Below are positions 2,051-51,964 of a stretch of 51,964 nucleotides of DNA, piece after piece (position 1 is the first letter of the stretch; the number at the start of each line of letters is the position of its first letter). Below the pieces are notes generated by a model. It saw nothing but the letters and a program-made list of their open reading frames with translations. It was not told the origin of the DNA and did not search any database. Made by a program: the position numbers and the translations under genes. This stretch comes from Vicugna vicugna (Eukaryota), in contig PNXW01001546.1 in NCBI GenBank assembly GCA_013265495.1, forward strand, positions 1 to 51,964, in the 5' to 3' direction.

Positions 2051-3130
2051 GCTGTCTTTTTGAGATATAATTGACATACAATATTGTGTGAGCTTAAGCG
2101 GTACAATGTAATGATTTGATACAGGTGTATATTGTGAAGTGATTGCGACATGAGTTTAGTTACTTACGTTACATAATTACCCTTTTTTGGGTGTGTGGTG
2201 TGAACTTTTACTATTTACTCTTTCAGTAGGTTTCAAGTGTATAAAACAGTATCGTTAACTATAACTACAGTTACATTATCATCTTATAACTGGGAGTTTT
2301 TACCATTTGACCAACAGCGTGCCATTTCCCCGGTCCTCAACCCTTGATACCACTATCCTACTGTTTCTATGAATTGGTTTTTTTTTTTTTTAGGTTTAGC
2401 GTAATGTCCTCAAAGTTCATCCATATTGTTTCCAATGGCAGGATTTCGTTCTTTTTATGGCTGAATAATATTCCATTGTGTGTGCGTGCATCACATTCTC
2501 TATATCTATTCATTCCACCACGGACCCTTACATTGTTTCCTGTTTTGGCTGTTGTGAATAATGCTATAATGAACTTGAGGGTGCAGATATTGCTTCTAGA
2601 TAATAATTTCATTTTCTTAGGATCTATAACCAGAAATGAGATTGCTGGATTATATGGTAGTCCTATTTTAATTTTTGGAAAAACCTTAATGTTGTTTTTC
2701 ATAGTCCCAATTTACATTCCCACCAACAGTACATGAGGGTTCCTTTTTCTTCTGATCATTGCAAACACTTATCTCTTGTCTCCTAAATGACAGTTCTTCT
2801 AACAGGTGTGAGACAATATTTCAGTATGGTTTTGATTTGTGTTTCCTTGATGGATAGTAATGTTGAGCTTTTTTCTTATACCTTGTATATGTATTTGGAA
2901 AAATGTCTATTAACATTCTCTGCCCACTTTTAATATAATAATAATAATTATTATTCTGTTGATTTATATGAGTTTCTTATATATTTTGGATATTAACCCC
3001 TTTTCAAATACATGTATTGTCAATATTTTCTCCCATTCCCTTTGGTAATGGTTTCCTCTTCTGTGCAGAATATTTTTAGTTTTATGTAGTCCCACTTGTT
3101 TATTTTTGCTTTTTTTTTTTGCTTTTGCTT
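2051..3130 (-). mobile_element. Old LINE-1 3' end (3'UTR plus ORF2 C-terminus, L1MA/L1MB-like)
   Basis: Minus ORF 2367-2702 (LPYNPAISFL...FIIALFTTAK) resembles the L1 ORF2 C-terminus; typical L1 3'UTR start TGAGATATAATTGACATACAA on the + strand. Confidence 0.85.
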
Positions 3131-3199
3131 TGTCAATTCCTGGTGTATAGCACAATGCTTCAGTCATACATGAATATACAGATATTTGTTTTCTTCCTT

Positions 3200-3350
3200 T
3201 TTTGAGATGATATGATTCTTTTTCAATTTATTAATGGTTGATTGGTTTGTGGATAATAAACCATCTTTTCATCCCTGGATAAATCCCAGTTGATCATGGT
3301 ATATGATTCTTTTAATGCATTTTTGAATTTGATGTGCTAGTGGTTTTTTA
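3200..3350 (-). mobile_element. LINE-1 ORF2 (RT-region) fragment
   Basis: TTCATCCCTGGATAAATCCCAGTTGATCATGGTATATGATTC is the antisense of the L1 ORF2 IIxHDQxGFIPG segment. Confidence 0.7.
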
Positions 3351-3465
3351 AAAAAAGTCTTTTCTTATTCTTTTTTTGAAGTATAGTCAGTTTACAATGT
3401 TGTGTCAATTCCTGGTGTACAGCACAATGCTTCAGTCATACATGAATATACATATATTTGTTTTC

Positions 3466-3558
3466 TTATTTTTTTTTTTTAATGGCAGTGCTGGGGATTG
3501 AACCCGGGACCTCATGCATACTAAGCATGCACTCTACCAATGAGCTATACCCACACCC
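3466..3558 (-). mobile_element. tRNA-derived SINE (Vic-1-like, camelid)
   Basis: Reverse complement reads GGGTATAGCTCATTGGTAGAGTGCATGCTTAGTATGCATGAGGTCCCGGGTTCAATCCCCAG with A and B boxes and a poly-A tail; TSD CATATRTTTGTTTTC at 3451-3465 and 3559-3573. Confidence 0.9.
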
Positions 3559-6500
3559 CATATGTTTGTTTTCATGTTCTTTTTTACTTTAAGCTACTAC
3601 AAGATATCAAATATAGTTTCTTGTGCTGTACAGTATAAACTTGTTCATCTGTTTTATATATACCAGTCAGTAACTGCAAATCTCGAACTCTCAATTTGTC
3701 CCATCCTCTTCCTTCCCCCTTGGTAACCATAAATTTGTTTTCTGTGTTTGTGAGTCTGTTTCTGTTTTGTAAATAAGTTCATTTGTCTTTTTTTTTTTTT
3801 ATTTTAGATCCCACATATGAGTGATATCATATAGTATTTTTCTTTCTCTTTCTGGCTTACTTCACTTAGAATGACATTCTCCAGGGCCATCCATGTTGCT
3901 GCAAATAGCATTATTTTATTATTTTTTATGGCTGAATAGTATTCCATTGTATAAATATACCACAACTTCTTTATCCAGTCATCTGTCAATGGACATTTAT
4001 GTTGCTTCCATGTCTTGGCTATTGTAAATAGTGCTGCTATCACCATTGAGGGCACGTATCTTTTCAAATTGGACTTTTCTCCAGATACATACCCAGGAGT
4101 TGATTACTGGATCAAAGGGTAAAGCTGTTTTTAGTTTTTTTAAGAAATCTCCATACTGTTTTCCATAGTGGCTACACCAAATTACATTCCCACCAACAGT
4201 GTAGGAGGGTTCCCTTATCTCCGCACCCTCTCCAGAATTTACTGTTTGTGGACTTTTTAATTATGACCATTCTTATTGCTGTGAGGAGATACCTCATTGT
4301 AGTTTTGATTTGCATCTCTCTGATACTTAGTGATGTTGAACATCTTTTTATGTGCCTATTAGCCATCTGAATATCTTCATTGGAAAATTGCTTGTTTGGG
4401 TCTTCTGCCCATTTTGGACTGGGTTGTTTGTTTTTTGTTATTCAGTTATATGAATTGTTTGTATATTCTGGAGATTAAGCCCTTGTCAGTTGCATCATTT
4501 GCAAATTTTTTTTTCTATTCCATAGGCTTTTGGTTTTGTTTATGATTTTCTTTGCTGTGCGAAAGCATATAAGTTTAACTAGTTCCATTTGGGGTTTTTT
4601 TGTTGTTGTTTGTTTCTTTGTTTTTATTTCTATTGCCTGGGTAGACTGCCCTAGGAAAATATTGGTAAGATTTATGTCAGAGAATGTTTTGTCTATGTTT
4701 TCTTCTAGGAGTTTTATAGTGTCTTATGTTTAGTCTTTAAAGCATTTTGAGTTTATTTTTGTGTATGGTGTGAGAAAATGCTCTAAATTCATTGATTTAC
4801 ATGCAGCTGTCCACCTTTCCCAACACCACTTGCTGAAGAGACTTTCTTTTCTCCATCGTATATTCTTGCCTCCTATGCCAAAGATTAATTGACCATAGGT
4901 GTGTGGGTTTATTTCCAGGCTCTTTATTCTGTTCCATTGATCCATAGATCTGTTTTTGTGCCAATACCATGCTGTTTTGATTACTATAGCTCTGTAGTAT
5001 TGTCTGAAGTCTGGGAGGGTTATTCCTCCTTCTTCATTCTTTGTCTTCAGTATTGCTTTGGCAATTCTGGGTCTTTTGTGATCCCATATAAATTTTAGGA
5101 TTATTTGTTCTAGTTCTGTGAAAAATACCCTGGGTAATTTGATAGGGATCACATTAAGTCTGTAGATTACCTTGGGCAGTATGGCCATTATAACAATATT
5201 GATTCTTCCAGTCCAAGAGCATCAGATACCTTTCCATTTCTTTAAATCATTTTTAATTTCTTTTCTCAGTGTTTTGTAGTTCTTTCAAATAAGTCTTTCA
5301 CCTCCTTGGTCAGGTTTATTCCTAAGTATTTTATTTTATGATTTTGATGTGATTTTAGAAGGGACTATTTCTTTACTTTCCTTTACTGATATTTCATTGT
5401 TAGTGTAAAGAAATGCAACTGATTTATTTGTTAATCTTGTATCCTGATACTTTGCCAAATTCTTTTATGAGCTCTAGTAGTTTTTATGTGGAACCTTTGA
5501 GGTTTCCTATGCAGAGAATCATGTCATCTGCATATAGTGGCACTTTTACCTATTCTCTTCCAATTTGGATCCCTTTTATCTTTCTTGCATGATTGCTAGG
5601 GTTAGGATTTCTAATACTGTGTTGAATAGATGTGCTGAGAGTGAACATCCTTGTCTTGTGTCAGATTTTAGTGGGAAGGCTTTCAATTTTTCACTGTTGA
5701 ATATTATGTTGGTTGTGGGTTTGTCATAAATAAGCTTCTATTATATTTTGATATATTCCCTCTATACTTGGTAAGAGTTTTTATCATAAATGGGTGTTGA
5801 ATTTTAGCAAATGCTTTTTCTACATCTATTGAGATGATCATGTGATTTTTGTTCTTTCTTTTATTGATGTGGTGTATCACATTGCTGAGTATGTTGAACC
5901 ATTTTTGTGTCCCTGGGAGAATCCAACTTGATCATAGTGTATGATATTTTTCATGTGTTGTTGAATTTTGTTTGCAAATATTTTGTTGAGAATTTTTGCA
6001 TCTACGTTCATCAGAGATACTGGCCTATAATTTTCTTTTTTGGTAGAGTCTTTGTCTGGTTTTGGTATCAGGGTGATGGTGGCTTCATAGAATGAATTTG
6101 GGAGTATTACCTCCTCTTCGATCTCCTGGAAGAGTTTCAGAAGGATCGGTATAAGTTTTTGTTTGTACATTTAGTAGAATTCCCCTTTCAAGAAAATAGT
6201 TCTTGGTTTGATTGATTTTTCCTATTTAAAAAAATTTCTATTTTATTTATTTCCTCTCTGATCTTTATTATTATTTCTATCTGCTGACTTTGGGTTTTAT
6301 TTATTCTTCTTTCTTTAATTTTTTAGGTGGTAGGTTAGGGTGTTTGAGGTTGTTCTTATTTTTTGTGGAAGGCCTGTATCACTATGAACTTCCCTCTTAG
6401 TACTGCTTTTGCTGCATCCCATAGATTGTGTGTGGTTGTATTTTCATTGTCATTGGTCTCAAAGTATTTTTTAATTTTTTCTTTTATTTCATCATTGATC

Positions 6501-7018
6501 CATTGTTTTTTTAGTAGCATGTTGTTTTGTCTCTATGCAGTCATTTTCTTGTTTTTCTTTCTGTGGTGGTTTTTAGTTTCATACCATTGTGATCAGAAAA
6601 GAGGTTTGAAATAATTTCTATCTTCCTAAATTTTTTGAGGATTCTTTTATGTCTGAATATGTGGTATATCTTAGAGAATGTTCCATGTGCAGTTGAAAGG
6701 AATGTATATTCTGTTTTTTGGGGATGTAATGTTCTAAAAAATATCAATTAAATCTAATTGTTCTGTTGTGTCATCTAATGTCACCATTGCCTTATTGATT
6801 TTCTGTGTGGAAGTCCTGTCCAATGATGTAGGATGTTAAAGTCTCTTACTATTACTGTATTCCCACCAGTTTCTCCCTTTATGTTTGTTAGTATTTGTTT
6901 TCTATATTTAGATATTCCTATATTGGGTGCATATATGTTAATGAGTGTAATAGCCTCTTTTTTTATTGCTGCTTTTGTCATTATATGGTGTCCTTCTTTA
7001 TCTTTCTGTATGGCCTTT

Positions 7019-7407
7019 TTTTTTCACATTATTTTTGTTGAAGTATAGTCAGTTTACAGTGTTATGTCAATTTCTGATGTACAGTACAATACTTCAGTTA
7101 TATAGGAACATACATATATTTGTTTTCATATTCTCATTCACCATAAGTTACTACAAGATATTGAATATAGTTTCCTGTGCTATACGGTATGTTTTTGTTG
7201 TCTATTTTTTATATATTAGTTAGTATCTACAAATCTTGAACTCCCAATTTATTCCTTCCCAACCCCCCTTCCTCCCCTGGTAACCATAAGTTTGTTTTCT
7301 ATGTCTGTAAGTCTGTTTCTGTTTTGTAAATAATTTCATCTTTTTTTTTCTTTTTTGATTCCACATACAAGTGATATCATATGGTATTTTTCTTTCTCTT
7401 TCTGTCT
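7019..7407 (-). mobile_element. Short L1 3'-end insertion (~390 bp) nested in an L1
   Basis: Homologous to the 3'UTR at 3375-3865; poly-T; TSD TGTATGGCCTTT at 7007-7018 and 7408-7419. Confidence 0.9.
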
Positions 7408-7904
7408 TGTATGGCCTTTGTTTTAGTCTGTTTTGTCTGATATGAGTATTGCTACCCCCACTTTCTTGTCATTTCCATTTGCATGCTATATCTTTTTCTG
7501 TCCTCTCACATTCAATCTGTGTGTATCCTTTGCCCTAAAGTGGGTCTCTTGTATGGAGTATATTGTAGGGTCTTGTTTTATTATCCAATATACTACTTTA
7601 TGTCTTTTGTTTGGATCATTTAGTCCATTGAATTTATGGTTATTATTGATAGATGTGTGTTTATTGCCATTTTATACTTTGTTTTCCAGTTGATTTTGTA
7701 TTTCTTCTTTATTCCTTTCTTTTGTGTGTGTGTGTCTGGCTTGATAATTTTCTTTTGTATAAGCTTTATTTCTTTTCTTTTTGGTATTTGTGATTCTATT
7801 TTATGCTTTTGATTTGTGGTTACCTTGTTTTTCAAATGTTTAACCCATTACTAAATCTCTTTGCTTTAGATTAGTAATCATATAGACTGAAACATGATGT
7901 ACTA

Positions 7905-9697
7905 ATGTTTTATTGAGGATTATTAGCATCTATGTTCATCAGTGATAGTGACCTGTAATTTTTCATTTTATATGGTATCTTTATCTGGTTTTGGTATTAG
8001 GATGGGGCTGGCATCAAGGAAAGAGTTTGGAAGCATTTCTTCCCCTGCAAGTAATTGAGAATGGTTTGAGAACTGATGTGAAGTCTTCTCAAAATGTTGT
8101 TTAGAAGTCATCCATGAAGACCTCTAGTCCTACTCTTGTTGCTGGGAATTCTTAAATTACTGATTCAATTTCATTACTAGTTATTTCTCTATTCATATTT
8201 TTCATAGTTCAGTATTGGTAGATTGTATATTTCTAGCTTTGTCCATTTATTCTTGGTTGTCCATTTGACTGGTATATGATTGTTCATAATATTTTTTATT
8301 ATCTTTTGTATTTCTGTGGTGTTGATGTTAACTTTTCTTTTTTCATTTCTGATTTTATTGATTTTGGCTTTAGTTTTTTCTTTATGACACTGACTAAGTT
8401 TCATCAATTTTTTTCATCTTTTCAGTAAGTCAGGTCTCAGTTTTATTGATCTTCTCCATTGTTTTTTAGTCTCTATTTCATTACTTTCTGCTCTGATCTT
8501 TATAATTTAGTTCCTTCTACTCATTTTGGACTTGTTTGTTCTTTGTTTTCTAATTTCTGCAGTGTGAGGTTAGATTATTTATTTGAGTTTTTTTCCTGTT
8601 TCCTGAGGTAGGGTTGTATCAGTATAAATGTTCCTCTAAGCTGCTTTTGCTGAATACCGTAGATTATGGATCATTGTGTTTTCACTTTCATGTGTATCTA
8701 GACTTTGTTCATTTTTTCTTTAATTTTTTTATTTTTTAGTAGTATATGGTTTAGCCTCTTCTGTCTGTGTTTTTGCAGTTTTTTCTTTCTGTAGTTGATT
8801 TCTCATCCCATTGCCTTGTGTGAGGAAAAGATGCTTGATATGATTCTAATTTTCTTAAATAGACCAAGACTCATTTTATGGTCTAGCATGTGATCTATTC
8901 AGGAAAATGTTTCATGTACACTTGAAAAGATTGTGTCTTCTGCTACTTTTGGATGAGATGTTCTATATAGATATGTTAAATCTATTTGGTCTAATATATC
9001 ATTTAAGATCAGTCTTTCCTTATTGATTATTTATCTGGATGATCTGTACATTGATGTAACAGGATTGTTTAAGTCCCCTACTATTATGATGTTACTGTCA
9101 ATTTCTCCCTTTATCTGTTAATGTATGCTTTGTATATACAGATGTTCCTTTGTTGGGTGTATATTTATTTACAATTATTACATGTTGTTATATAATTGAT
9201 GCCTTGATCATTGTGAAATGTTCTTCTTTCTCCCTTATTATGGTCTTTGTTTTAAAGTCTATTTTGTGTGATATAAGCTTTGCTTCCTTTGCTTTCTTTT
9301 CATTTCCATTGGTATGGGATACCCTTTTCCTATCCCTTCATTTTCATCCTGTGTGTGTCTTCAGATCTGCTCATCTTCCTGGTGCAGGATTCCCAAGGCT
9401 GGTGAGCCCAGTGTGGAACTGAGACTCCTCTCTCTCAGAGACAACCTGTATGATTGTTATTATCCTCCCATGTAAGAATCACTCACCTAGGGTATGGGTC
9501 TTGACTATACTGCATTTCTTCCTCTTATATCCATTTCAGTGTGATTCCTTCTTCATGTCCTTAGCTTTAGAATGCCTTTTCTTCTAGTCTTCTGGCCATT
9601 TTCATGAACAGTTTATCTTTACATGGTTATAATTTTGGTGTGCCCATGGGATGAGGTGGGTTTAGGATCTTCCTACTCCACCATCTTGGCAACCAAC
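7905..9697 (-). mobile_element. LINE-1 with 5'UTR joined to ORF2 endonuclease region (ORF1 deleted)
   Basis: 5'UTR start (rc CCAAGATGGTGGAGTAGGAAGATCCT at ~9665-9690) resembles the 5' ends at 16851 and 31603; jumps at ~9365 into ORF2 EN sequence; ORF 8189-8407 is ORF2-like. Confidence 0.8.
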
Positions 9698-9704
9698 CTC
9701 TCAT

Positions 9705-11220
9705 GCGTAGATTTGAGCTGACAAAAGGTAGAATGAGTTAACTTGAAGCTATATCAATAGGGAATATACATTTCAAAAGATACAGAGAGAGAAGAATGAA
9801 GAAGAACCAACAGAGTATCAGAGAAATTAGGGATACCACTAGATGCATCAGCACATGCATATAGGAGTACCAGGAAGAGAAGAAAGTGAGAAAGAAGCAG
9901 AAAAAATATTTGAAGAAATAATAGGATTAAACTTCCCAAGTTTATTGCAGAACAGTGACTTACATATCCAGGGTATTTAAGGTATTCAAAATATAAAAAG
10001 TGCAAGGACATTAATAAAGAGATACATAATATTAATACTTCTGAAACTCAAAGACAGTAGAAAGTAAAAAATGGAAGGACATTAATAAAAAGGTACTACA
10101 TAGTACTACTGCTGAAACTCGAAGATAGAAAATCTTGAAGACAGCAAAAGGAAGACCACCCATCACTTACTGGGGAACCCCAAGAAGTTTAATATTGACT
10201 TCTTAGTAGAAATGATTTAGACCAAAAGCAGTTGGATAACATATATATAGTGCTCAGGGGAAAATAACCCCATCAGATAAGAATCTCATTTCTAGTAAAG
10301 TTATATTTCAAAGGCAAATGCAAATTAAGGATTCACCCAAATAAACAAAAGCAGAGAATCTGTTGCTAGTAGATGTATCTTATAGGAACATTTAAAGAAC
10401 ATTTAAAGAAAATTTACAAGCCAAAAGCAAGTAGCTTAGGAAGTAATTCAAATCCATGCAGAAAGCCAAAGAGCATTAGTAAAATAACTAGGCAATTGTA
10501 ACAGTTTAAATGCCTATTTTTTTTTTTTTATTCTGGCAGGGCAGGATGGGGAAGTAATTAGATTTATGTATTTCTAGAGGAGGTACTGGGGATTGAATCC
10601 AGGACTTCATGCATGCTAAGCATGCACTCTACCACTTGAGCCATATCCTCCCCCACTTAAATGCCCATTTTTATGTTTTTTCCCTAATAATTGATTTAAA
10701 TATCAATTTTTCTAAAATAATATGTATGTAATAAAATCTCAGACCTGTAACTTACAGAAATATAATATGTGTGTAATATATTACCAATAACTCACAAAGA
10801 AGGTGAGTCATAACAAAATGTATTGGGCTAAGGAAATGATAATAGATTGCAAAGTGAAAATTATAATATTGTATATGTCTCAAACATTAATACCTATAAT
10901 ATGTTATAACACTAATACCACAAAATGGAAGAAAGTAAAAAGAGTTCTATAGGTGTAACATTTTTATATATTGCTAGAGTTAAGCTAGTATAAATTGGAT
11001 GTTGATTCTGATAGGATGTATGTTTAAACCCTAGAGCAATCACAGAAAACTATACAATATAAATGTGATAAGATATAATATGATATAACATAATATGATA
11101 TTTAGAAAGAGTGACTTATTAAAGAAATTAAAACGTTACATTAGGAAATACTCGATGAAGCATTAAAAAATTAGATGAAAAAAAGTACATGAGATATACA
11201 GAAAACCAAAAGGAAAAAAA
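9705..11220 (+). mobile_element. Old LINE-1 ORF1 and spacer remnant
   Basis: ORF1-like segments (GAAGCAGAAAAAATATTTGAAGAAATAATAGG; AAAATCTTGAAGACAGCAAAAG). Confidence 0.7.
10520..10655 (-). mobile_element. tRNA-derived SINE (Vic-1-like, camelid)
   Basis: Reverse complement reads GGGGAGGATATGGCTCAAGTGGTAGAGTGCATGCTTAGCATGCATGAAGTCCTGGATTCAATCCCCAGTACCTCC; TSD TTAAATGCCYATTT at 10506-10519 and 10657-10670. Confidence 0.9.
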
Positions 11221-12825
11221 GCAGTATTTCTCAAAGCAATATTGAGAAAAAAGAACAAAGCTAGGGGCATCACTCTCCCTAATTTCTAACTATATTACAA
11301 AGCTATGGTAATTAAAACAGCATATTGGCATAAAAGAGACACATAAATCAATGGAACTGAATAGAGAGCCCAGAAATAAACCTATGCATTTATGTTATAA
11401 TTCATTTATGATGAAGGAACCAAGAATATAGAATGGGGAAAGGACAGTTTTTTCAATTACTGTCACTGAGAAACCTGGACAGCCACATAGAAGAGAATAA
11501 AATTGGAGCACTATTTTATATCATATAGAAGAATTAACTCTAAGTGAATTAAAGACTTGAACATAGGACCTGACAACACAAAACTCCCAGATGAAAACAT
11601 AGGTCATAAGCTCCATGACATAAGTCATGGCGAAGATTTTTTAATCTGACACCAAAAGCAAAAGCAACAAAAGTAAAAATAAGCAAGTGGGACTATATCA
11701 AACTGGAAAGCTTCTGCACAGCAAAGGAAACCATGAACAAAATGAAAAGGCAACCTACTGAATGGGAGAAGATAATTGAAAATAATATATCTGATAAGGG
11801 GCTAAAATCCAAAATATCCAAATATACATATAACTCAATAGCTTAAAAGCAAACAGTCCTTTGAAACAAAGACCATAATGAAAGACAATGAAAAGCATCA
11901 TATAATGATACATGGATCAATACAAGAAAAGGATATTACATTTGTTAGCATATATGCACCCAGTATAGGAGCCTAAATATATAAAACAAACATAACAGGT
12001 ATGAAGGGAGAAATTGGCAATAACATAATAATAGTAGGAGGCTTTTAACACCCCATTGACATCAATGGACAGATCATCTAGACAGAAAATAAGTAATGCA
12101 ACAGAGATCCTAAATGACACAATAGACAGATTGGACCTAATTCATATCTACAGGACACTACATCTAAAAAAGCTCAATATACATTCATTTCAAGTTGCAT
12201 GTACCATCCTCTAAGATAGGCCAAATACTAGGATACAAAACAAGCTTCAACAAATTTAAGAGGATACAGATTATTTCAAGCATGTTTTATGACCAAAATG
12301 TTTTAAAATGAGACATCATCCACATTAACAAAAACAGGAAAAGAAGAAACAAATGGAGACTAAATAACATGCTATGCAAAAGGCAAAAATTAATGATGAA
12401 ATCGAAAGAGAAATCAGAAAATACCTCAAGAAAAATCAAAATGAAAACACAGCTTTAAAAAAAAACCTGGAGTGCTGTAAAACCAGATCTAAGAGGGAAA
12501 TTTATAGCAATACAGGCCTTCCAGAATCAAGGAAAACTCAAACAACCTAACCTACTATCTAAAGAAAATTAGAAAAGAGGAATAAACCTGAAAGTCAGCA
12601 AAAGGAAAGAAATGATAAAAAATCAGAGAGGAAATAATTAAAATAGAGAAGGAATACAGAATAGAAAAGATCAGGAAAACCAAAAGCTGTTTTTTTTTTT
12701 AAAGAAAACAAAATTGACAAACAATTATGTTCCCAAGGTTCACTTAGAAGAGACAGAACCCAAATAAATGAAATAGGAAATTAAAGAGGAGAAGTAAAAC
12801 TGATACCACAGAAATAAATACAAAT
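11221..12825 (+). mobile_element. Two scrambled LINE-1 ORF2 fragments (late ORF2 11221-11865, then EN region 11866-12825)
   Basis: GGCATCACTCTCCCTAATTTC and AAGCTTCTGCACAGCAAAGGAAACC in the first block; ATATATGCACCC (IYAP) and TCAATGGACAGATCATCTAGACAG in the second; order is reversed relative to an intact ORF2. Confidence 0.8.
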
Positions 12826-14990
12826 TTGTTCTGATTCCCAAACCAGACAAATAAATCACCAGAACCAATATGTGTTAGAATATACATGCAAAATTCTCAA
12901 AATTTATTTAATCCAGCAACATATAAAAAGAATTATACATAATACCAAGTGAATTTTACTTCATGAATGCAAGGTTGGTTTAACCTTCAAAAAAGGCATT
13001 AAGTAAAAATCATATCAATAGACAAAATGACAAAAACCATAACATATCAAAAGAGAAAGAAAAATATTTCACAAAATTTTGTACCCTTTTATGATGAGAA
13101 AAACATGAGCGAGAGTAGGTATATAAGAGAACTTATGAAACTCAATAAAAGACACTTATAAAAAAAAAAGTCACAGCTAACATTATACTCAGTGGTGAAA
13201 AGACAGAAAATTTTCTTCCTAAGTTGAGATATAGATGAGAATATCTGCTCTTGCCACTACTAATCAACATTGTACTGAAAGTTCTAGTCAGATCAACTAG
13301 GCAAGATATGGAATGAAAGGCATTAAGTATGGAAAGGAAGAAGTGAAAAATGTACCTGTTTCTGCAGATGACATAATCTTGTATATAAAAAATCTTAAAG
13401 AGGCAACTGAAAAAAACTGTTAGAACTAATAAACAAGTTGGAAAGCCTGCAGGAAATAAGATTAATACATGTACATTGAATTTGTTTTGTACCTTTGCAA
13501 TGAACAACCCAAAAGGGAAATTTTGAAAACAATCTCATTTTAGTAGCATCAAAAAGAAAATACTTAGGAACACATTTAAGAAAAGAAGTACAATACTTAT
13601 ACTGAAAACTAAAATACATTGTTGAAAGATATTCAAGAAGGTAGAAGTAAATGGAAAGACATCTTGTGTTTATGGATCAGATGTCTTAATATTGTTAAAA
13701 TAGCAGTGCACCTCAAATTGATCTAAAAATGCAAGGTAATAACTATGAAAATCTCAGCTTGGTTCTTTGTAGAAACTGGCAAGTTGATCCTAAAACTCAT
13801 AGGGGCTCAAAACAGCCAATATAGTCTTGAATAAGAAGAATAAAGCAGGGGAACTCACACTTTGGATTTCAAAACCTATTTAAAAACTACAATAATCACA
13901 ACAATTTGATACCAGCACAAAGCTCAACATTATAGATCAATGGAAAACAGATGAGGTTCCTGAAATGTACCCTCTAATCGTGGGCAGTTGATTTTTTAAC
14001 AAGAAAGCCAGGTAATTTAAATGGGGGAAAGAATAGTCTCTTCAACAAATGGTGCTATGGCAGTGAGATATCCACATGCAAAATAATGATTTTGAACCCC
14101 TGCTCCAAACTGAAACAGAAGTTAACATATGTTAGATTAAATAGCTAGAGAGTGAAAGCTAAAGCTTTAAAACTCTTAGGAAAAGCATAGGTGTAAATAT
14201 TTGTGACATTGTATTGTGCAATTGTTGCTTAAATATGACACCAAGAACACAGGCAATATGTTAAACAAACTAGACTTCATCAACATTAAACTCTTTTTGC
14301 TTTAGAGGCTGCCATCAAGAAAGACAACCAATAGAGTGAGAGAAAATATATGGAAATCATAAAATTGAAAACGAACTTGTATGTAGAAAATAGAAAGGAC
14401 TCATAACTTAATAAAATCATAAATTACCCCATTATAAAAATGGCAAAGAATTCTGAATTGTCATTTCTCCAGAGAAGATGCAGGTCAATAGTTCATGACA
14501 AGATGCTCAACATTATTAGCCTAGGAAATCAGTGAAACCCACAGTAAGATACCACTTTACATGAAATATAAAGTTGTCATAAAAAGGCCAACAGTAACAA
14601 GTACTGTTGCTGATGTGGCGTTATTGGAAGCCTCACGCACTGATGTTGGGAATGTAAAATGGTGGAGCTACTTTGGAAAACAGTATAGCAGTTTCTGAAA
14701 ATGCTACACAAAGATTTGCCATTTATATGACCCAGCATTTCCACCTCAAGGTATATACACAAGAGAAATGAAAACATATGTCCATATACAAACTTATATG
14801 AATCTTCAGAGCAGCATTATTCATAATTGAAAAACTGGTTCTAACATTTGTATGAAAAAGCATAAGACAGAAACATTCAACAAAATACTGAAGAAGAAAA
14901 ATACAGTTGAAGGACTCACATTACTTGAATGCAAGCCAGACTGTAGAACTACAGTAATAAATACATCACGGTATTCTAGAAAGAGCAGAA
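12826..14990 (+). mobile_element. Old LINE-1 ORF2 RT to C-terminus (L1MB-L1MD-like)
   Basis: CTGATTCCCAAACCAGACAA; degenerate SADD (TCTGCAGATGAC at 13361); ORF2 C-terminal motifs. Confidence 0.8.
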
Positions 14991-15242
14991 TTTCTTTATT
15001 TTAAATTGAAATAAATATATTTTCTTACTGGACATTTTAATTTATTATTTGAATGTCCATTGATCCTTCTTTCTATTCAGTTGTTTGCTTTATTATACTA
15101 ATTGTAAGAGCTCTTTGTATAGTAAATGTGTTAAACTTCTTCTTCCCCTCATAAATGTTTTAAATATTTTTTCCTTATATTTTTATTTGACTGTTAACTC
15201 AGTTTATTATTATATAAAAGTTAAAAAAATTTACATAGTCAT

Positions 15243-15700
15243 TGTAAGAGGATCAAGTCAGGGAGAATTGAGACCTTGGCCACTAGTTAAAAAGAGAAAA
15301 TTTTAATTTAATTAACAATTCAAAAGGGTGGTAAAAGCAAAAAGTCAAATAGGGTACAGTAAAGCAACCCAAATACTACTAATGATGGGAAGCTCCAACA
15401 GGAATGAGTGGTGTTAACAGATGCCATGATTTCAGCCACCTGAGCAGTTTTCCTGCAGGAACTGTACTCAGTAAGAAGATGTAGCTTGTGTTGGAAACAC
15501 TGTGTATAGCAGAGAAAGAGGGAGAAATATTGTGGTTTCTTGTTCCCCACTCTCCAGCTTATCATTGCCTCCCATTTTCCAAGTCTAGCCAGAAATATTT
15601 GGAAATCTGAGAAATAGAGTTTACAGTGTTCATTGATTGTGAAACACAATACAGGAGAGGAAGTAGGGAAATGGATTGAGGGTAAACAGACAATAATTAA
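15243..15700 (-). mobile_element. Old solo LTR, ERVL type (LTR33-like)
   Basis: Reverse complement begins TGTCTGTTTACCCTCAATCCATTTCCC and ends ...CTCTTACA; subfamily recognised from memory only. Confidence 0.5.
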
Positions 15701-16249
15701 GAGAATTATATACATCAATTATTATGTTATGATTTCTAGATTTGGTGTTTTTGTAATAAGTCCTTTCCTCTCTGAAGATTACTTCTATTATTTATATTCT
15801 GTATTGATTCTTATATTTTCAGTTCACATGAAATATATTTTGGTATAAGGTGTATATAAAGATCCAATCTTATTTTTCAATGACATTTCAGTTTTCAAAA
15901 CACCACCATTCTCTATTGATTTGAAATTATACCTTTGTCATATTCTGAATTTTTAGGTAGTTTGTGTTTATTTCTGTACTTTTATTTGGTTTCTTATATC
16001 TCCTAGTATATCTTGATAATATACCATGTTGCTTTATTTTCACTTATTCTACAGTATTTAAAAGCTCAGCAAACATTTATTTTTCCAGATGATTCTTAGG
16101 ATATTTTTGTATAATGAAGAAAACATACGAGAATTAAAATAATTAGAAATTCATGAGGTGTATTTATTAATTTGGTACCCAACCAAAAGTCTAATTCCTA
16201 TTTATACTATTTAAATTGACTGCAGAGAAACAAATATAATCCTTTACAT

Positions 16250-45900: not shown

Positions 45901-47344
45901 CTCTCTAATCTTCATTATTTCCTTCCTTCTACTGACTTTAGGCTTCATTTGATCTTATTTTCTAATTCTTTTAAGTGTTAGGCTAGGTTGTTTAGTTAAA
46001 TTTTTGTTTGTTTCTTGAGGTAGACTTTTATTGCTATAAACCTCCCTCTTAGAACAGCTTTTGCTGCATCCCATAGGTTTTGGCATGTTGTGCCTTCATT
46101 TTCATTTGTCTCAAGGTATTTTTCTAATTTCCTTGTTGATTTCTTCATTGGCTCTCTCTCTTTTTTTTTTTTTCAATAGCATGTGGTTTAGTCATCCCAT
46201 GTTTTTTCTTTTACCGTTTTGTTTCTATAATTGATTTCTAGTTTTATACCATTGTGGCCAGGAAAAATGCTTGATACAATTTCTATCCTCTTAAATTTGT
46301 TGAGACTTGTTTTGTAGCCTACCATGTGATATATCCTGGAGAACATTCAAAGTACACCGCAAAGAATGTTTATTCAGCTCTTTTTGGATGTGATGCCCTG
46401 TAGATTTCTATTAAGTCTAATTGAGCCATTGTATCATTTAAGAGCAGAACTGCTTTAATGAATTTCTCAATGTCAATGGACAGATGATGCAAAACCCCCT
46501 ACTCTTACTGTGTAAATATCAGGTTCTTCTGTTAGAATATTCTTCATATATTTACGTGATCCTGTATTGGGTGCATATATGTTTATATATATATTTTTTA
46601 ATTGAAATATAGTCAGTTTACAATGTTGTGTCAATTTCAGGTGTACAGCATAATGTTTCAATCATATGTGAACATACATATATTTGTTTTCATATTTTTT
46701 ATCATAAGTTATTACAAGATATTGAATATAGTTCCCTGAGCTATCCAGTATGAACTTATTTATCTATTTTATATAGTTAGTGTATGCAAATCTCAAACCG
46801 CCAATTTATCCCTTCCCACCTACTTTCCCTCCTGGTAACCATAATTTTGTTTTCTATATCTGTGGGTCTGTTTCTGTTTTGTAAATAAGTTCAATTGTCT
46901 TTTTGTTAGATTCCACATATAAGTATTTTTCTTTCTCTTTCTGGTGGGTGCGTATATGTTAATGAATATAATATTCTCTTCCTATATTGATTCTTTTGTC
47001 ATTATATAATGCTCTTCTTTGTGTTGTTATAGGCTTTGTATTAAAGTGTGTCTGATATGACTATTGCTATTCCTGCTTTCTTGTCATTTCCATTTGTATG
47101 AATTATCATTTTCCATCCTCCCACTTTCAGTCTAGTGTGTCTTTACCCCTGAAGTGAGTCTTTTAAAGGCAGCATATGAACAGTCTTGTTTTTTATCCAA
47201 TCAGCCATTCTATGTCTTTGATTGGAGCATTGATGTTTAAAGTAATTATTAGTAGATATGCACTTTTTGCTATTTTGTAATTTTTTTCAAGTTGTTTTTG
47301 TAGTTCTCTATTTGTTCTTCTTTTTCTTTCTTCTCTTGTGGTTT
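42910..47344 (-). mobile_element. Degenerate LINE-1 (3'UTR and ORF2 to spacer), interrupted by the ERV
   Basis: ORF2 remnants 45169-45489 (ENYRQISLMNID) and 46473-46661 (NIYAPN); stops abruptly at the LTR TG. Confidence 0.92.
46584..46944 (-). mobile_element. Short L1 3'-end insertion (~360 bp) nested in an L1
   Basis: Same 3'UTR family as 7019-7407; TSD TGGGTGCRTATATGTT at 46568-46583 and 46945-46960. Confidence 0.9.
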
Positions 47345-47871
47345 TGAGAAGAAACAGACAGGCTCAGCTAACAAGCTAACTGTAAATCTAAGTGTAACAA
47401 GTGTTGGTTTGCTGATTCCCTGCTCATGTTTTATTTTATTTTATTTTACTTTATTTTATTTTATTTTATTTATTTTATTTTATTTTATTATTTTATTTTA
47501 TTTTATTTTATTTGTTTTATTTTATTTTTTTATTTTATTTTATTATTTTATTTTATTTTATTTTATTTTATTTTATTTTAATTTTATTTTTGCTAGCCAG
47601 CTGGATTTTCAAAGAGACATACCCGGCCTTGAAATGTTGGTTTGCTGCCTCCCTGCCTCTACTTTCGTGATAATGATGCTGCTAAAGCTATTCCATGCCT
47701 GTGGCCGAATACCCCAAGCTTGTAATTAATCCTATAAAACCTTATCCACACATCTTGGAGGTGCTTTTAGCATCGGAGCAGAAGCCCCTCTGAGCCTGCT
47801 GGTGTAATAAATCTGAGTACTCCAGCCCTCCAAGTGGTGCTTGTTTCTTGGCTGACCTGTCGTTTCCATAA
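47345..47871 (+). mobile_element. 5' LTR of ERV1 (gammaretrovirus-like) provirus
   Basis: Begins TG at the L1 breakpoint; TATAAAA at 47733-47739; AATAAA at 47806-47811; followed by a PBS. The terminal CA appears mutated, so the 3' boundary is approximate. Confidence 0.85.
47429..47591. repeat. (ATTTT)n pentanucleotide microsatellite in LTR U3
   Basis: Directly visible, about 160 bp. Confidence 0.95.
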
Positions 47872-47876
47872 ATTTC

Positions 47877-47894
47877 TGGAGGCCCCAGTGAGAT
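47877..47894 (+). promoter_or_regulatory. Primer binding site, tRNA-Thr
   Basis: TGGAGGCCCCAGTGAGAT is 17/18 complementary to the recalled tRNA-Thr(UGU) 3' end ATCTCGCTGGGGCCTCCA; the mismatch is CpG>TpG. Confidence 0.8.
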
Positions 47895-48212
47895 TTAACC
47901 ATGCCAGCCGCTTGAACCGCTGGGCTGGTGGCTCTGACCAACCGGGAGACGGGACTCCAGCAGCGAACGAGGTGGCACAGCCCGACGGTATTCTGGGTTC
48001 TCTTTTGTGATGGTGACTTGGCCCCCTCGGGTGGCTGGGCTACAACCAGAGCCAGACTCGGTGGAGGGACAGACAGACTCACCAGGTGGCTGTCTGGACA
48101 AGATAGGAACCCCCGGGGAGAAATCAGGTCCTGTCCCAGTGGACAGAGGAGCAGGCTGATCCCCTCCTACAGGAAACATGATATTGGGACTGGTGGGAGG
48201 ACTGTTGTTAAC

Positions 48213-48214
<2 letters not shown>

Positions 48215-48257
<43 letters not shown>

Positions 48258-48259
48258 TG
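48215..48259. repeat. (GT)n microsatellite in the ERV leader
   Basis: Directly visible. Confidence 0.95.
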
Positions 48260-48564
48260 AATGAATGTGTGGCCTGTGAAGCATGAGATCCGGCTCCACT
48301 TTGTAGCTCCATGGCATTCTGCTACGGAGTTCGAGTGAGTCCCAGCCTGCGGTTCCGTGGTGACCTCATACGGCTCAGGGCAGTATCGGTCCCTCAGGGT
48401 CCTGATCAGAGTCAGCGGCTTATACTGACCCACCAAAACTAAGAGGCACCTTCGTCCCCGCGAGGGGAGCAGCCAGGCAGATGCAGCAAAAACCCTCCTT
48501 TGTCTTGTCTGCGACACCAGTACAGGGTGGCTACACTGGGAGGGAAAGGGGTGTAAAACAGCCA

Positions 48565-49070
48565 ATGAGTCAATGCCCCCTGTGCCCTCAGAGGCTAGGA
48601 TGCTATTTCTTCGAGAAAGTCTCCTACCTGGCTCTGTCACAGAACACCTGAGACTTATTGTTCCCCTACTGAACTGACCCAAGGAGTGCCCCTTTTGCCT
48701 AGCCTCAGACCCCCAGGACTTGAGTTTAGAAGATGAATTTCTTCAGGACTGGGCTCATCCAGCCTTGGATGTCCCCTTTCTAGTCCATTTGTTTTGCCAT
48801 CAGCCGTCAGTCCCACGCCCTTGGTACGTTAGTTCAAGATAAAGAGAGGATTTAGTGAGGAAGCGCCTGAAACTGCTTGAGGCCTTGAGCTCCAGAGACA
48901 TCAGCTGTGACTGGAACCCAGACTCCCTGACCAAATTAGCCTTCAAATGACTCATAGAGCCATCAAGAGAGTGGTCTTTCCGGGAACTCTGGTGTTTTGA
49001 AGAGTGAAGAAGGAAAAGATATAAAGGCTACCTTCCCAAACACCCAAAGCAACAGATCTATTATCCTTAA
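48565..49070 (+). pseudogene. Putative decayed pre-gag ORF (~168 codons, two CxxC motifs)
   Basis: Manual translation with one 1-nt frameshift at ~48680 and five internal stops, four of them TGA; ends TAA 13 nt before the gag ATG. Confidence 0.5.
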
Positions 49071-49083
49071 ACATCTAGACAGA

Positions 49084-50664
49084 ATGGGAGGCTCGAAGTT
49101 GAAACCCACCACCCTAGGCTGCATGATTAAGAATTTCAAAAAGGGATTCTCAGGAGACTATGGAGTTTGAATGACCCCTGGCAGGCTCTGCACTTTGTGT
49201 GAGCTTGAATGGCTGGGCTTTGGAGTCCGGTGGCCCTCAGGAGGAACTCTGGACCTAGCAACAGTGCGAGCAGTCTATCAAATAATCACTGGAACCCCAG
49301 GCCACCCAGATCAATTCCCTTACATTGACTCCTGGCTGAATATTGCCCAGACTCTACTCCCATGGATTCGGTTCTGCTCAAATGGACCTGGACAATGCAA
49401 GATATTAGCAGCTCGGCCGGTCCAGGCCAAAAAGACAGAGAAAAGCCCATTTTCCAGGGAGACACAGAGGACAAGATGTGCCTGCCCCCTCCATATGCCT
49501 GTGGGGCACCGACACCTCCAGTCCCACTGGTGACACCACCACCCTCTGTGTCACCACCTCCCTAACCTGAGGACCCAGAGGCAGAGCCCAGCCCCCAGCC
49601 TGAGCCTGTAGGAAGGAGACTCCGCTCAGCACAAGCCAGGAGACCAGCACCACCGGCCCTCCAAATGCCACTGCGGGAGAAACAATGACTGCAGCAAGTT
49701 GGGGAAGACGGGACTGTTCAGCCCAGGTACCCCGTACTCTACTACCAACCCTTTAGTACTACAGACCTTCTCAATTGGCACCATCATACTCCTTCCTACG
49801 CTGAACAGCCGCAGGCTATGATTGACCTCGTAGAGTCTATCTTCCATTCTCACAGGCCCACCTGGGAAGATGTCCACCAGCTGCTTCTGATTCTTTTCAA
49901 TACGGAGGAGAGGAGACTCATTCTCACTGAAGCACGAAAATGGCTACAGGGCCAAGCTCCCAGGGACACAATGGATGTTGAGGGGTGGGCCATGACACGG
50001 GCCCCTGACAGCAGGCCAGATTGGGACTTTAACACCCAAGAAGGAAGAGAAGCACTGTGTGAGTACCAGGAGGCCATCCTACAAGGGCTAAGAGCCGGAG
50101 ACAAGAAGCCAACTAACATGTCTGAAACGACCATGGTGACCCAGAGGCCAGACGAAACCCCCACTGACTTCTATGATAGACTATGTGAAGCATTCCGAGT
50201 CTACACTCCTCTTGATCCTGAGGCCCAAGAAAACCAGCGGATGGTCAACACTGCCTTCGTAGCCCAATTGTGCCCAGATATACACCGGAAACTAGAAACT
50301 GGATGGATTTGCAGGGATGAATGCTATACAGCTACTGGAAGTAGCAAACAAAGTTTTTGTAAACTGAGAATGGGAAGTCCAACGAGAAGCAGACCAGCGA
50401 ATGAAGCAGAAAGCCACGCTCCTTGCAGCAGCCCTGGGGAAAACAGGCTTCAGCCAGAATCCTGCACCACCCCAGAAGAGGGGACCCCGACCATGGATGC
50501 CCTTGGGTGGAGATCGGTGCGCATATTGCCGGGAGACAGGACACGGGAAGAATGAGTGCCCAAACAGAGAGGATGGGAAGAGAGCCCCCTGCAAAAGGCC
50601 TCCTTATCAGCTGGAGCCACTAGCCAGTAATTGCATCAGACTGGCTATGGTTGACTCAGAATAG
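49084..50664 (+). pseudogene. gag: ERV1 gag (MA-p12-CA-NC), disrupted
   Basis: MGGSKLKPTTLGCMIKNFKKGFSGDYGV*MTPG...GHPDQFPYIDSW; PPPY late domain at 49485-49496; CA YYQPFSTTDLLNW; MHR QRPDETPTDFYDRLCEAFRVYTP; single zinc knuckle CAYCRETGHGKNEC; amber stop at 50662-50664; stops at 49168, 49686 and 50365; frameshifts near 49430 and 50294. Confidence 0.93.
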
Positions 50665-51964
50665 GAGAGACCGGGCTCCCCCAGAAGCCCAAGGTCAAAA
50701 TGTTGATAGGGGGCCAACCAATGACTTTTATGGTGGACACAGGAGCAGAGTATTCTGTGGTGACTCAACCTGTAGACCCCCTGACCAAGAAAAAGGCGAC
50801 TATTATAGGGGCTACTGGGGACTTGACTGCCCCCCATTTCTGCCAACCACGATCCTGTCAAGTAGGGGGCCACCTAGTGACACATGAATTTTTATACTTG
50901 CCTGAATGCACGATACCATTGCTCAAAAGAGATCTTCTATCTAAATTGGGGGCACAAATCACCTTCGTCCCCGGGAAACAGGCACATCTGACCCTACGGG
51001 GAGAGTCTATGATTCTAGCCATCTCAGTTCCCCGAGAAGAAGAATAGCATCTATATGAGAGCAGAGAACTCCAGGAAAATCCTAGCAAGCTCCTGGAAGA
51101 GTTTCCATTAGTCTGGGCTGAGAATGGGCCACCAGGCTTGGCACATAATCAGGCACCACTGGTGATTGACCTCAAACCTGGAGCCAGCCCGGTCAGACAG
51201 AAGCAATATCCCATGCCTTGAGAGGCTCACCTAGGAATCCAGAAGCATATACAGCGCCTCCGACAAGAGGGAATCCTAACCGAGTGCAGATCTCCTTGGA
51301 ACACACCATTGCTCCCAGTGAAGAAAGCTGAAGGAATAGATTATAGGCCAGTTCAGGACTTATGAAAAGTGAGTGAAGTAGTCACTACAATACATCCAGC
51401 AGTGCCAAATCCATACACTCTTCTAGGCCTCATTCCAGCAGGCGCCAAATGGTTTACATGCCTAGACCTTAAAGACGCTTTCTTCTGTTTTTGACTCTTA
51501 CCTGTGAGCCAGCCCATATTCGCATTTGAATGGGAGAATCCCCACACAGGAGGGAAAACTCAACGGACATGGACATGTCTCCCCCAAGGCTTTAAAAACT
51601 CACCCACCCTGTTTGGAGAGGCACTAGCCTCAGACCTTGTAAAGTTCCCTGGGGAGACATTGAACTCTACTCTGTTCCAGTATGTGGATGACTTGCTGTT
51701 AGCCAGCCCCAGTGAAGAGGACTGTTGGAGAGGAACTTGAGCCCTTCTAGGGTTACTCCAAACAACTGGATATAAGGTCTCATGGAAAAAGGCCCAGATC
51801 TGCAAAAAGACAGTCAAATACCTGGGATTTATTATCTCAGAGGGACACCAAGCCCTAGAACCAGAGTGAAAACAAGTTATTTGTGCCATACTCAGACCAG
51901 AAACAAAAAGGAACCTGCAAGAGTTCCTGGGCGCAGCTGGGTTTTGCCGGATCTGGATCCCCGG
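50665..51964 (+). pseudogene. pol: ERV1 pro-pol (protease and RT), disrupted, runs off the window
   Basis: Protease FMVDTGAEYS...[53 protein letters not shown]; one frame from 50700 with stops at 51045, 51219, 51363, 51738 and 51867. Confidence 0.95.

Follow-up and report, generated by a model that had tools for sequence, protein, structure and literature searches.

Layout of the provirus

The window, that is, the whole stretch of 51,964 nucleotides of Vicugna vicugna DNA that was analysed, carries from position 47345 onward the 5' part of an ERV provirus on the + strand. The features of this provirus are the following:

47345..47876, + strand: 5' LTR, in which homology to the LTRs of other family copies begins at 47337-47345 and extends to the PBS
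47877..47894, + strand: PBS of the tRNA-Thr type, in which the 15 bases after TGG complement the 3' end of the host tRNA-Thr(CGT) exactly
47895..48564, + strand: non-coding upstream leader, with no consistent codon signal in any frame
48565..48664, + strand: pre-gag ORF remnant, part 1, in the frame of ATG 48565, with an in-frame stop at 48649
48664..48666, + strand: frameshift, the window being one base short relative to copies that have both parts in one frame
48666..49070, + strand: pre-gag ORF remnant, part 2, in the frame of 48666, with stops at 48675, 48840, 48948 and 49005
49084..50664, + strand: gag, broken in this copy, comparison of 493 codons with an open family copy revealing 4 stops and 2 frameshifts
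50665..51964, + strand: pro-pol, with protease- and RT-like ORF translations, cut off where the window and the contig end

The U3 of the 5' LTR contains a (TTTTA)n microsatellite (~47430-47585), and the LTR also has a TATA-like box (near 47744) and an AATAAA (near 47806). No second LTR is present within the window. Where the window has (TTTTA)n, the U3 of L006, a family copy with an open gag, displays a ~104-nt tandem duplication (82.7% identity over 150 nt). The tRNA-Thr(CGT) gene of the host (L069) was located by pattern search and typed by ARAGORN, and three host tRNA-Thr(TGT) genes have one mismatch to the window PBS. The gag of the window is 91.8% identical in nucleotides to that of L006, which matches the Pfam families Gag_p30 (E 1.4e-59), Gag_MA (9e-15) and zf-CCHC (2e-4). 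These matches, together with the tRNA-Thr PBS, therefore identify a gammaretrovirus-like ERV of the Thr-PBS type. Indeed, the element combines the MA (p15), the p30 capsid and the single CCHC knuckle of gamma-like (class I, ERV1) elements with the PBS complementary to the tRNA-Thr 3' end that characterizes the 'T' type, the PBS type alone carrying weak taxonomic weight according to a passage of Grandi et al. 2020 (PMC6995185).

The leader extending from the PBS to gag is 1189 nt long and includes a (TG)n run at 48217-48255 in its upstream part. Its most conserved stretch is 48460-48564, which shows 76-90% identity between ERV groups versus 59-63% for the ORF body. This stretch is devoid of codon signal and is a candidate RNA element (packaging or dimerisation signal); Rfam gave no family at gathering score in 47700-49300.

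The pre-gag frame within the window

In the forward translations of 48563-49072, the frame of ATG 48565 reads MSQCPLCPQ... until the stop at 48649, and the frame of 48681 reads KECPFC... until the TAA at 49068-49070, which ends part 2. The gag ATG at 49084 stands 13 nt after this terminal stop. A sequence-only reading had joined both parts into one decayed ORF, and its reading strings, stops, coordinates, leader length (~1.19 kb) and 13-nt gap were all reproduced by translation. Its path runs through internal stops at 48649, 48670, 48840, 48948 and 49005, four of them TGA and one TAA. The TGA stops had been ascribed to the type of lesion that disrupted gag and pol; the stops are not uniformly of this proposed type.

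The same reading had restored one base at ~48680 to join both parts. This frameshift is real, although misplaced. In the related copy L050, a single frame of 169 codons takes in the whole path; it contains two stops, and its start codon is altered. Relative to L050, the window has just one indel that shifts the frame, a base missing at ~48664. With the frameshift there rather than at ~48680, the path meets the stop at 48675 instead of the one at 48670, and the corrected path counts 5 stops in the 163 codons read. The joined state of the two parts is also found in L031, L033, L034, L045 and the F groups described below. A second ATG, at 48600, is in the frame of part 2, and no frameshift is needed from there; its fourth following codon is a stop in most copies, and this ATG is present in only 9 of the 22 other aligned copies.

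Taken alone, the pre-gag frame of the window does not exceed chance expectation. At best, a single frame has 5 stops, a count matched or bettered by 24.3% of 1000 dinucleotide shuffles, and the best path with one shift is equalled by 28.0% of them. Among 182 further pieces of 506 nt taken from the window, 27-31% likewise equal the pre-gag frame. The sequence-only reading had itself conceded that the stops are not by themselves far below chance. As the statistics of the window stand at chance, the case for a gene rests only on the comparison among copies.

The window's own family, in which every copy is broken

At least 40 scored family matches, at 88-93% identity, were obtained among 76 candidates in the host assembly (2.03 Gb). 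The family sample consists of 30 loci, including the window, and site counts are given among the 29 others. Over the 506 nt of the ORF, all 30 copies display 4-13 stops per forward frame. The stop at 49005 is found in 29/29 of the other copies, that at 48675 in 28/29 (likewise that at 48670), and the frameshift at ~48664 in 29/29. A consensus of family copies had been proposed as a test for one open frame, and within the window's own family this test would fail. The three other stops are private, or nearly so, to the window: 48649 is a sense codon in 27/29, 48840 is a stop in 0/29 and 48948 in 3/29 (sense in 26). The additional base expected near 48680 is carried by no family copy among the 29 others. 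In 27/29, a C-run that is one base shorter puts the ATG out of phase with the codons after it, and 26/29 have an extra base at 48857.

Nine copies (L006 and L008-L015) are identical over the 506 nt, and along ~2.9-3.3 kb covering LTR, leader and gag their identity to L006 is 98.9-100%. Since their flanks differ, they correspond to separate recent insertions. In eight of these nine copies, gag is free of stops and frameshifts along 494-496 codons, thus the family was active recently. The pre-gag path of the same eight copies carries 5 stops and 3 frameshifting indels, thus the gene was not needed for this recent amplification. Within the family, the NG86 dN/dS is 0.56 in the pre-gag frame versus 0.74 and 0.80 in the other frames, and the differences are distributed as 159/159/183 over the three codon positions. 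Based on the window statistics, the 30 broken copies and the young copies with open gag, a chance frame in a non-coding leader was the first reading adopted; it was dropped after deeper lineages were found. For L016, L017, L019, L023-L027 and L029, the alignment to a young copy ends ~350 nt into gag and is followed by divergence, a pattern suggesting that they stem from a common derivative with an internal deletion or rearrangement, which was copied in its turn.

Coding signal between deeper lineages of the same genome

More distant relatives were found by searching the host genome with P0002, a 71-residue orphan predicted protein (73 matches), and then with a natural open stretch of 97 codons (149 matches). 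Over the ORF, the relatives are distributed into four groups, namely the window family (clades O, W and Y), F1, F2 and F3. The F groups and the window family share 54-63% nucleotide identity in the ORF, the values rising to ~67-69% for gag and 71-77% for the upstream leader. In frame-blind nucleotide alignments of the window family with F, 44-51% of the amino acids are identical in the pre-gag frame versus 26-34% in the other two frames.

The distribution of stops singles out the same frame. Over 23 aligned copies, the pre-gag sense frame accumulates 70 stops (~3 per 163 codons), whereas 103-248 stops were counted in each of the five others. Alone among the six, the pre-gag frame lacks a deeply shared stop, no stop column being common to more than 7 of the 23 copies. 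The start columns are ATG in 16/23 and one base away from ATG in the other 7; the terminal-stop columns are a stop in 23/23, with a gap to the gag ATG of 12-22 nt. The frame is a separate sense-strand ORF located between the PBS and gag, which is the definition of a pre-gag ORF in gamma-like ERVs. No ATG-to-stop ORF of at least 100 codons ending before gag was detected in 58 rows (50 distinct loci, 8 of which were fetched twice). In L041 and L051, indels bring the end of pre-gag into the reading phase of gag, and the resulting long fusions (169 open codons in L051) look like an intact ORF in automated scans.

Synonymous changes were counted in codons with a single difference, against a null keeping the classes of CpG transitions, other transitions and transversions. 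In the pre-gag frame, they exceed expectation for the pairs L050-L045 (43 observed for 22.1 expected, P 4e-7), L043-L032 (38 for 18.9, P 8e-7), L050-L043 (35 for 20.3, P 1e-4), L044-L058 (32 for 19.3, P 5e-4) and L058-L001 (31 for 18.4, P 6e-4). The excess is also found between clade O and the rest of the window family (27 for 15.3, P 3.5e-4, and 29 for 17.7, P 1e-3) and within F for L043-L044 (22 for 13.8, P 0.0065). The F2-F3 pair L041-L063 is not significant (19 for 17.5), and L051-L056 likewise gives no signal. These significant pairs share deep branches and amount to about three independent comparisons (F1 versus F2/F3, F versus the window family, and O versus W+Y). The signal is present in each half of the second segment separately, and the N-terminal 36 codons show, between groups, 46 synonymous changes versus 27.7 expected in the ATG frame.

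When the pairs are added up, neither off frame displays an excess (91 for 102.8 and 86 for 115.8, P 0.93 and 1), one single pair reaching P 0.047. The upstream leader, used as a control, gave weak values in some frames (P 0.012-0.08), thus the null is imperfectly calibrated. The positive control, consisting of the first 139 codons of gag, gave 182 synonymous changes for 99.6 expected. By NG86, pN is 0.15-0.34 and pS 0.46-0.82 in the pre-gag frame, whereas pN and pS are about equal in the off frames; omega is ~0.24-0.28 in the pre-gag frame where unsaturated. This deficit of pN relative to pS is comparable to that of the N-terminal part of gag, and differences between groups concentrate at the third codon position, as in the example 35, 43 and 76. 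Within groups, no signal was obtained (134 synonymous changes for 122.5 expected, P 0.12), as neutral decay after integration would give.

The codon-position check proposed by the sequence-only reading, with its dN/dS, is therefore positive in exactly the frames that it had designated, provided that ERV lineages are compared with each other. The coding signal between lineages likewise bears out the ancestral ORF of ~168 aa that it had postulated, starting from the position of ATG 48565 and ending just before gag. These substitution patterns show purifying selection, as read at the protein level, to have held the frame while ERV lineages diverged in the genome. The region 48565-49070 is probably a decayed copy, with 5 in-frame stops and 1 frameshift, of a genuine 5'-proximal pre-gag gene of ~169 codons belonging to a gamma-like ERV with a tRNA-Thr PBS.

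In the group of relatives, L031 stands apart by its composition. The GC content of its pre-gag region is 0.61 versus 0.49-0.52 in its closest relatives, and it has G/C where others have A/T (42 G/A differences in one direction versus 6 in the other, against L006). Both strands of L031 contain several open frames. Hypermutation or differential CpG decay among copies might account for its composition.

Start contexts and access to gag

In the window, ATG 48565 has C at -3 and A at +4, whereas the gag ATG has A at -3 and G at +4. The contrast between a weak pre-gag and a strong gag context, already pointed out from the sequence alone, is conserved in the 23 aligned copies. Indeed, a pyrimidine at -3 and A at +4 surround the pre-gag start in 23/23, and gag has a purine at -3 in 22/23 and G at +4 in 21/23. 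A weak start placed before the strong gag start would fit leaky scanning. In the ~520 nt separating the two starts, 80 ATG triplets were counted versus 170 expected from base composition, and in the upstream leader 122 versus 132. Under dinucleotide-preserving shuffles, one of the six copies examined remains clearly depleted, so that the scarcity is at most suggestive of leaky scanning. The pre-gag ORF would be translated from the unspliced genomic RNA, its weak start context letting some ribosomes scan past it to the strong start of gag.

Alternative explanations

A non-coding 5' leader, in which the frame would be a chance occurrence within a stop-poor stretch and the conservation would reflect an RNA-level function (packaging, dimerisation or translation control), agrees with the chance-level stop count of the window, with the 4-13 stops found in every forward frame of all 30 family copies and with the broken pre-gag of the young copies with open gag. 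It also agrees with the lack of protein relatives beyond the orphan P0002, of domains and of a confident fold, and long pre-gag leaders are described as general in gamma-like ERVs in the part of Grandi et al. 2020 (PMC6995185) devoted to them. This explanation is nevertheless unlikely, as three-base periodicity is not a product of RNA structure. The synonymous excess, the pN below pS and an amino-acid identity 15-20 points higher are restricted to one frame and recur on at least three separate deep branches, the adjoining upstream leader lacks these coding signs, and the pre-gag frame is alone among six in having no deeply shared stop. A short regulatory uORF was ruled out by the ~169 codons, by pN being lower than pS and by an amino-acid identity of 44-51% between groups whose nucleotide identity is 54-63%. 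The coding frame could also be real with a start other than ATG 48565 (non-AUG, internal or on a spliced upstream exon), only the part from ~48666 onward being translated. In support of such a start, ATG 48565 is out of frame not only in 27/29 family copies but also in all 5 aligned O-clade copies (L045 and L031-L034), the length of the C-run being variable. Moreover, the N-terminal 36 codons are statistically weaker, one off frame being borderline there (P 0.04), and the upstream leader has several ATGs, one of which, at 48283, is common to 14/22 other copies. This possibility is given a slightly smaller chance, for no frameshifting indel separates the start columns from PLCP in 13 of 14 F copies (L063 has one), the N-terminal codons do show their synonymous excess in the ATG frame, and the start columns are ATG or one step away in 23/23. 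In addition, no splice joint was seen in the leader in RNA-library contigs, though contigs cannot show absence.

Two further readings keep a protein-coding function and change its nature. An N-terminal extension of Gag comparable to the glyco-gag of MLV, FeLV and KoRV, with no separate gene, would occupy the same place upstream of gag in a gamma-like virus; the frame of L041 is in phase with gag, and the gag frame of L031 is open ~100 codons upstream. It is very improbable: all 23 aligned copies end the frame with a stop located 12-22 nt ahead of the gag ATG, the selected frame differs from that of gag in the window and in L050, and the GC-rich L031 (0.61) is open in several frames on both strands. 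An in-frame upstream start with no stop before the gag AUG, by which glyco-gag is recognized, is thus contradicted by the conserved terminal stop. As for a selected antisense gene, similar to HBZ of HTLV-1, the antisense frame sharing wobble positions with the pre-gag frame shows a similar synonymous excess (159 for 90.6). However, this frame has 186 stops over the 23 copies, in columns common to 21, 19, 14, 13 and 12 of 23, which are so widely shared that they are ancestral, and other antisense frames have stops common to 19 and 18 of 23. The conserved stops decide for the sense frame and the antisense gene, whose probability is close to nil, was rejected.

Predicted product of the pre-gag gene

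For the decayed sense-strand gene retained here, the segments conserved in natural pieces are PLCP, CP[F/S]C, VPFLVHLFCH, WNPDSL and a basic C-terminal stretch, the latter corresponding to the basic patch noticed in the sequence-only reading. The CPLC...CPFC pair put forward in that reading holds for its second half only. The cysteines of CP[F/S]C are found in 28/29 (48687) and 29/29 (48696) family copies, and the motif is present in most O and F copies. The second Cys of CPLC (48583) is conserved in 29/29, whereas the first one (48574) occurs in 0/29 and is absent in other groups too, being private to the window, so a pair of CxxC is not ancestral. A zinc-binding pair of two CxxC was consequently discarded as an ancestral trait, four-cysteine conservation failing at this first Cys.

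The search for a zinc-binding fold was negative, as no Pfam family was found at cut-off for the pre-gag product and a PDB sequence-profile search gave no hit with E below 0.39. The ESM Atlas provided no usable lead. With the window read-through containing X (P0001), a word-index protein search found no match, and a full phmmer search retrieved only P0002 and a spurious repeat protein, P0003. A profile built from 29 natural pieces again retrieved only P0002 in the protein search, and scans of viral and metagenome contigs gave no relatives of the pre-gag product. AlphaFold2, run on the alignment of natural pieces, gave a mean pLDDT of 55 and a pTM of 0.31. This weak model has helices at 11-20, 26-37, 100-113 and 122-164, and the Cys/His middle is modelled at pLDDT below 50. 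Tentatively, the product may have been small and soluble, its N-terminal part being helical, its middle bearing Cys and His residues (PLCP, CP[F/S]C and VHLFCH) and its C-terminal part forming a long basic helix. As a guess, the Cys/His middle may bind metal. Zinc binding and leaky scanning, both advanced in the sequence-only reading, are properties that we would infer from motifs and start contexts.

RNA-library contigs of three runs (X1, X2 and X10) cover the family at 95% or more. Over L006:1-3300, their summed depth is 3000-16000 for the LTR versus 30-650 for the leader and gag. This excess may come from solo LTRs or LTR-driven transcripts, or possibly from DNA carry-over. A cDNA run at raw-read level gave 4 reads. 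Contigs and reads together establish neither transcription of the window locus nor translation.

Recurrent loss in amplifying lineages

Pre-gag lesions are shared within several groups. Clade Y has three shared pre-gag frameshifts, one frameshift is common to 4/6 copies of F1, and another one is found in 5/5 copies of F3 plus L051. The stop at 49005 is common to all 30 W+Y copies. At least three lineages (clade Y, an F1 subgroup and F3) thus have shared pre-gag lesions. As lesions are shared within groups, elements already bearing them kept making copies. These lesions show the putative gene to have been lost repeatedly in lineages that kept amplifying, the family of the window being one of them.

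Comparison with known systems

Among reported systems, the closest in description is the reconstructed ancestor HERV-T3, in which an extra ORF of unknown function precedes gag on its 5' side (Blanco-Melo, Gifford and Bieniasz 2017, eLife, PMC5388530). In both cases, the pre-gag ORF becomes visible only after comparing many decayed copies, and a one-base frameshift was also handled in the account of HERV-T (PMC5388530). The HERV-T ORF, however, was inferred in primates from a reconstructed ancestor, and the likeness to it drawn here is one of position and description, not of sequence. A predicted pre-gagV1 flanks gag in HERV-V (PMC12679747), and ERV-W and other gamma-like HERVs are described with long pre-gag portions containing putative ORFs (Grandi et al. 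2020, PMC6995185). In common with the ORF of the window, pre-gagV1 and the pre-gag ORFs proposed for ERV-W and HERV-H are predicted coding frames that occupy the space from PBS to gag in class I ERVs (PMC12679747, PMC6995185). HERV-V, ERV-W and HERV-H nevertheless are ERV groups different from that of the window, likened to it by position and not by sequence. As described for ERV-W, the sequence of the pre-gag ORF differs even between primate parvorders, and part of that pre-gag region derives from the pol of another ERV.

The glyco-gag (gPr80gag) of MLV, FeLV and KoRV likewise uses the leader upstream of the gag AUG and is presented as an accessory function, dispensable for particle formation (PMC6995185, PMC5120145). 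It is described as an in-frame extension of Gag from an upstream CUG, whereas the ORF reported here has an AUG start, another frame and a conserved stop before gag. Full-text searches of the literature gave no pre-gag ORF in camelid or other non-primate gamma-like ERVs. By its kind, the ORF of the window belongs with the reported pre-gag ORFs of HERV-T and others.

Significance of the pre-gag gene

Gammaretroviruses are taught as 'simple' viruses having gag, pol and env only. As a best guess, the product of the pre-gag gene would be an accessory factor useful for infectious spread and dispensable for germ-line amplification. Its roles in infectious spread could be to counter host restriction or to handle viral RNA through the Cys/His region and the basic helix. 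Tentatively, and with odds that are rather against it, the gene might represent an uncharacterised family of accessory proteins of tRNA-Thr-primed gamma-like retroviruses, possibly homologous to the pre-gag of HERV-T, needed for infectious spread and discarded at each switch to the germ line. If the homology with the HERV-T pre-gag were true, the gene would be shared across mammalian orders. The loss of env is known in ERV 'superspreaders', and a discard of pre-gag on the germ-line switch would, if true, parallel it.

The pre-gag ORFs of HERV-T, HERV-V, ERV-W and HERV-H are mostly predictions, and what is new here is the explicit evidence of selection and the pattern of recurrent loss. A consensus of the family's own copies would wrongly reject the gene, as only deeper relatives revealed the pre-gag ORF. 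Such comparisons may give a handle on what the extra genes of these viruses did, and on whether losing them accompanies the conversion of an infectious virus into a genomic parasite.
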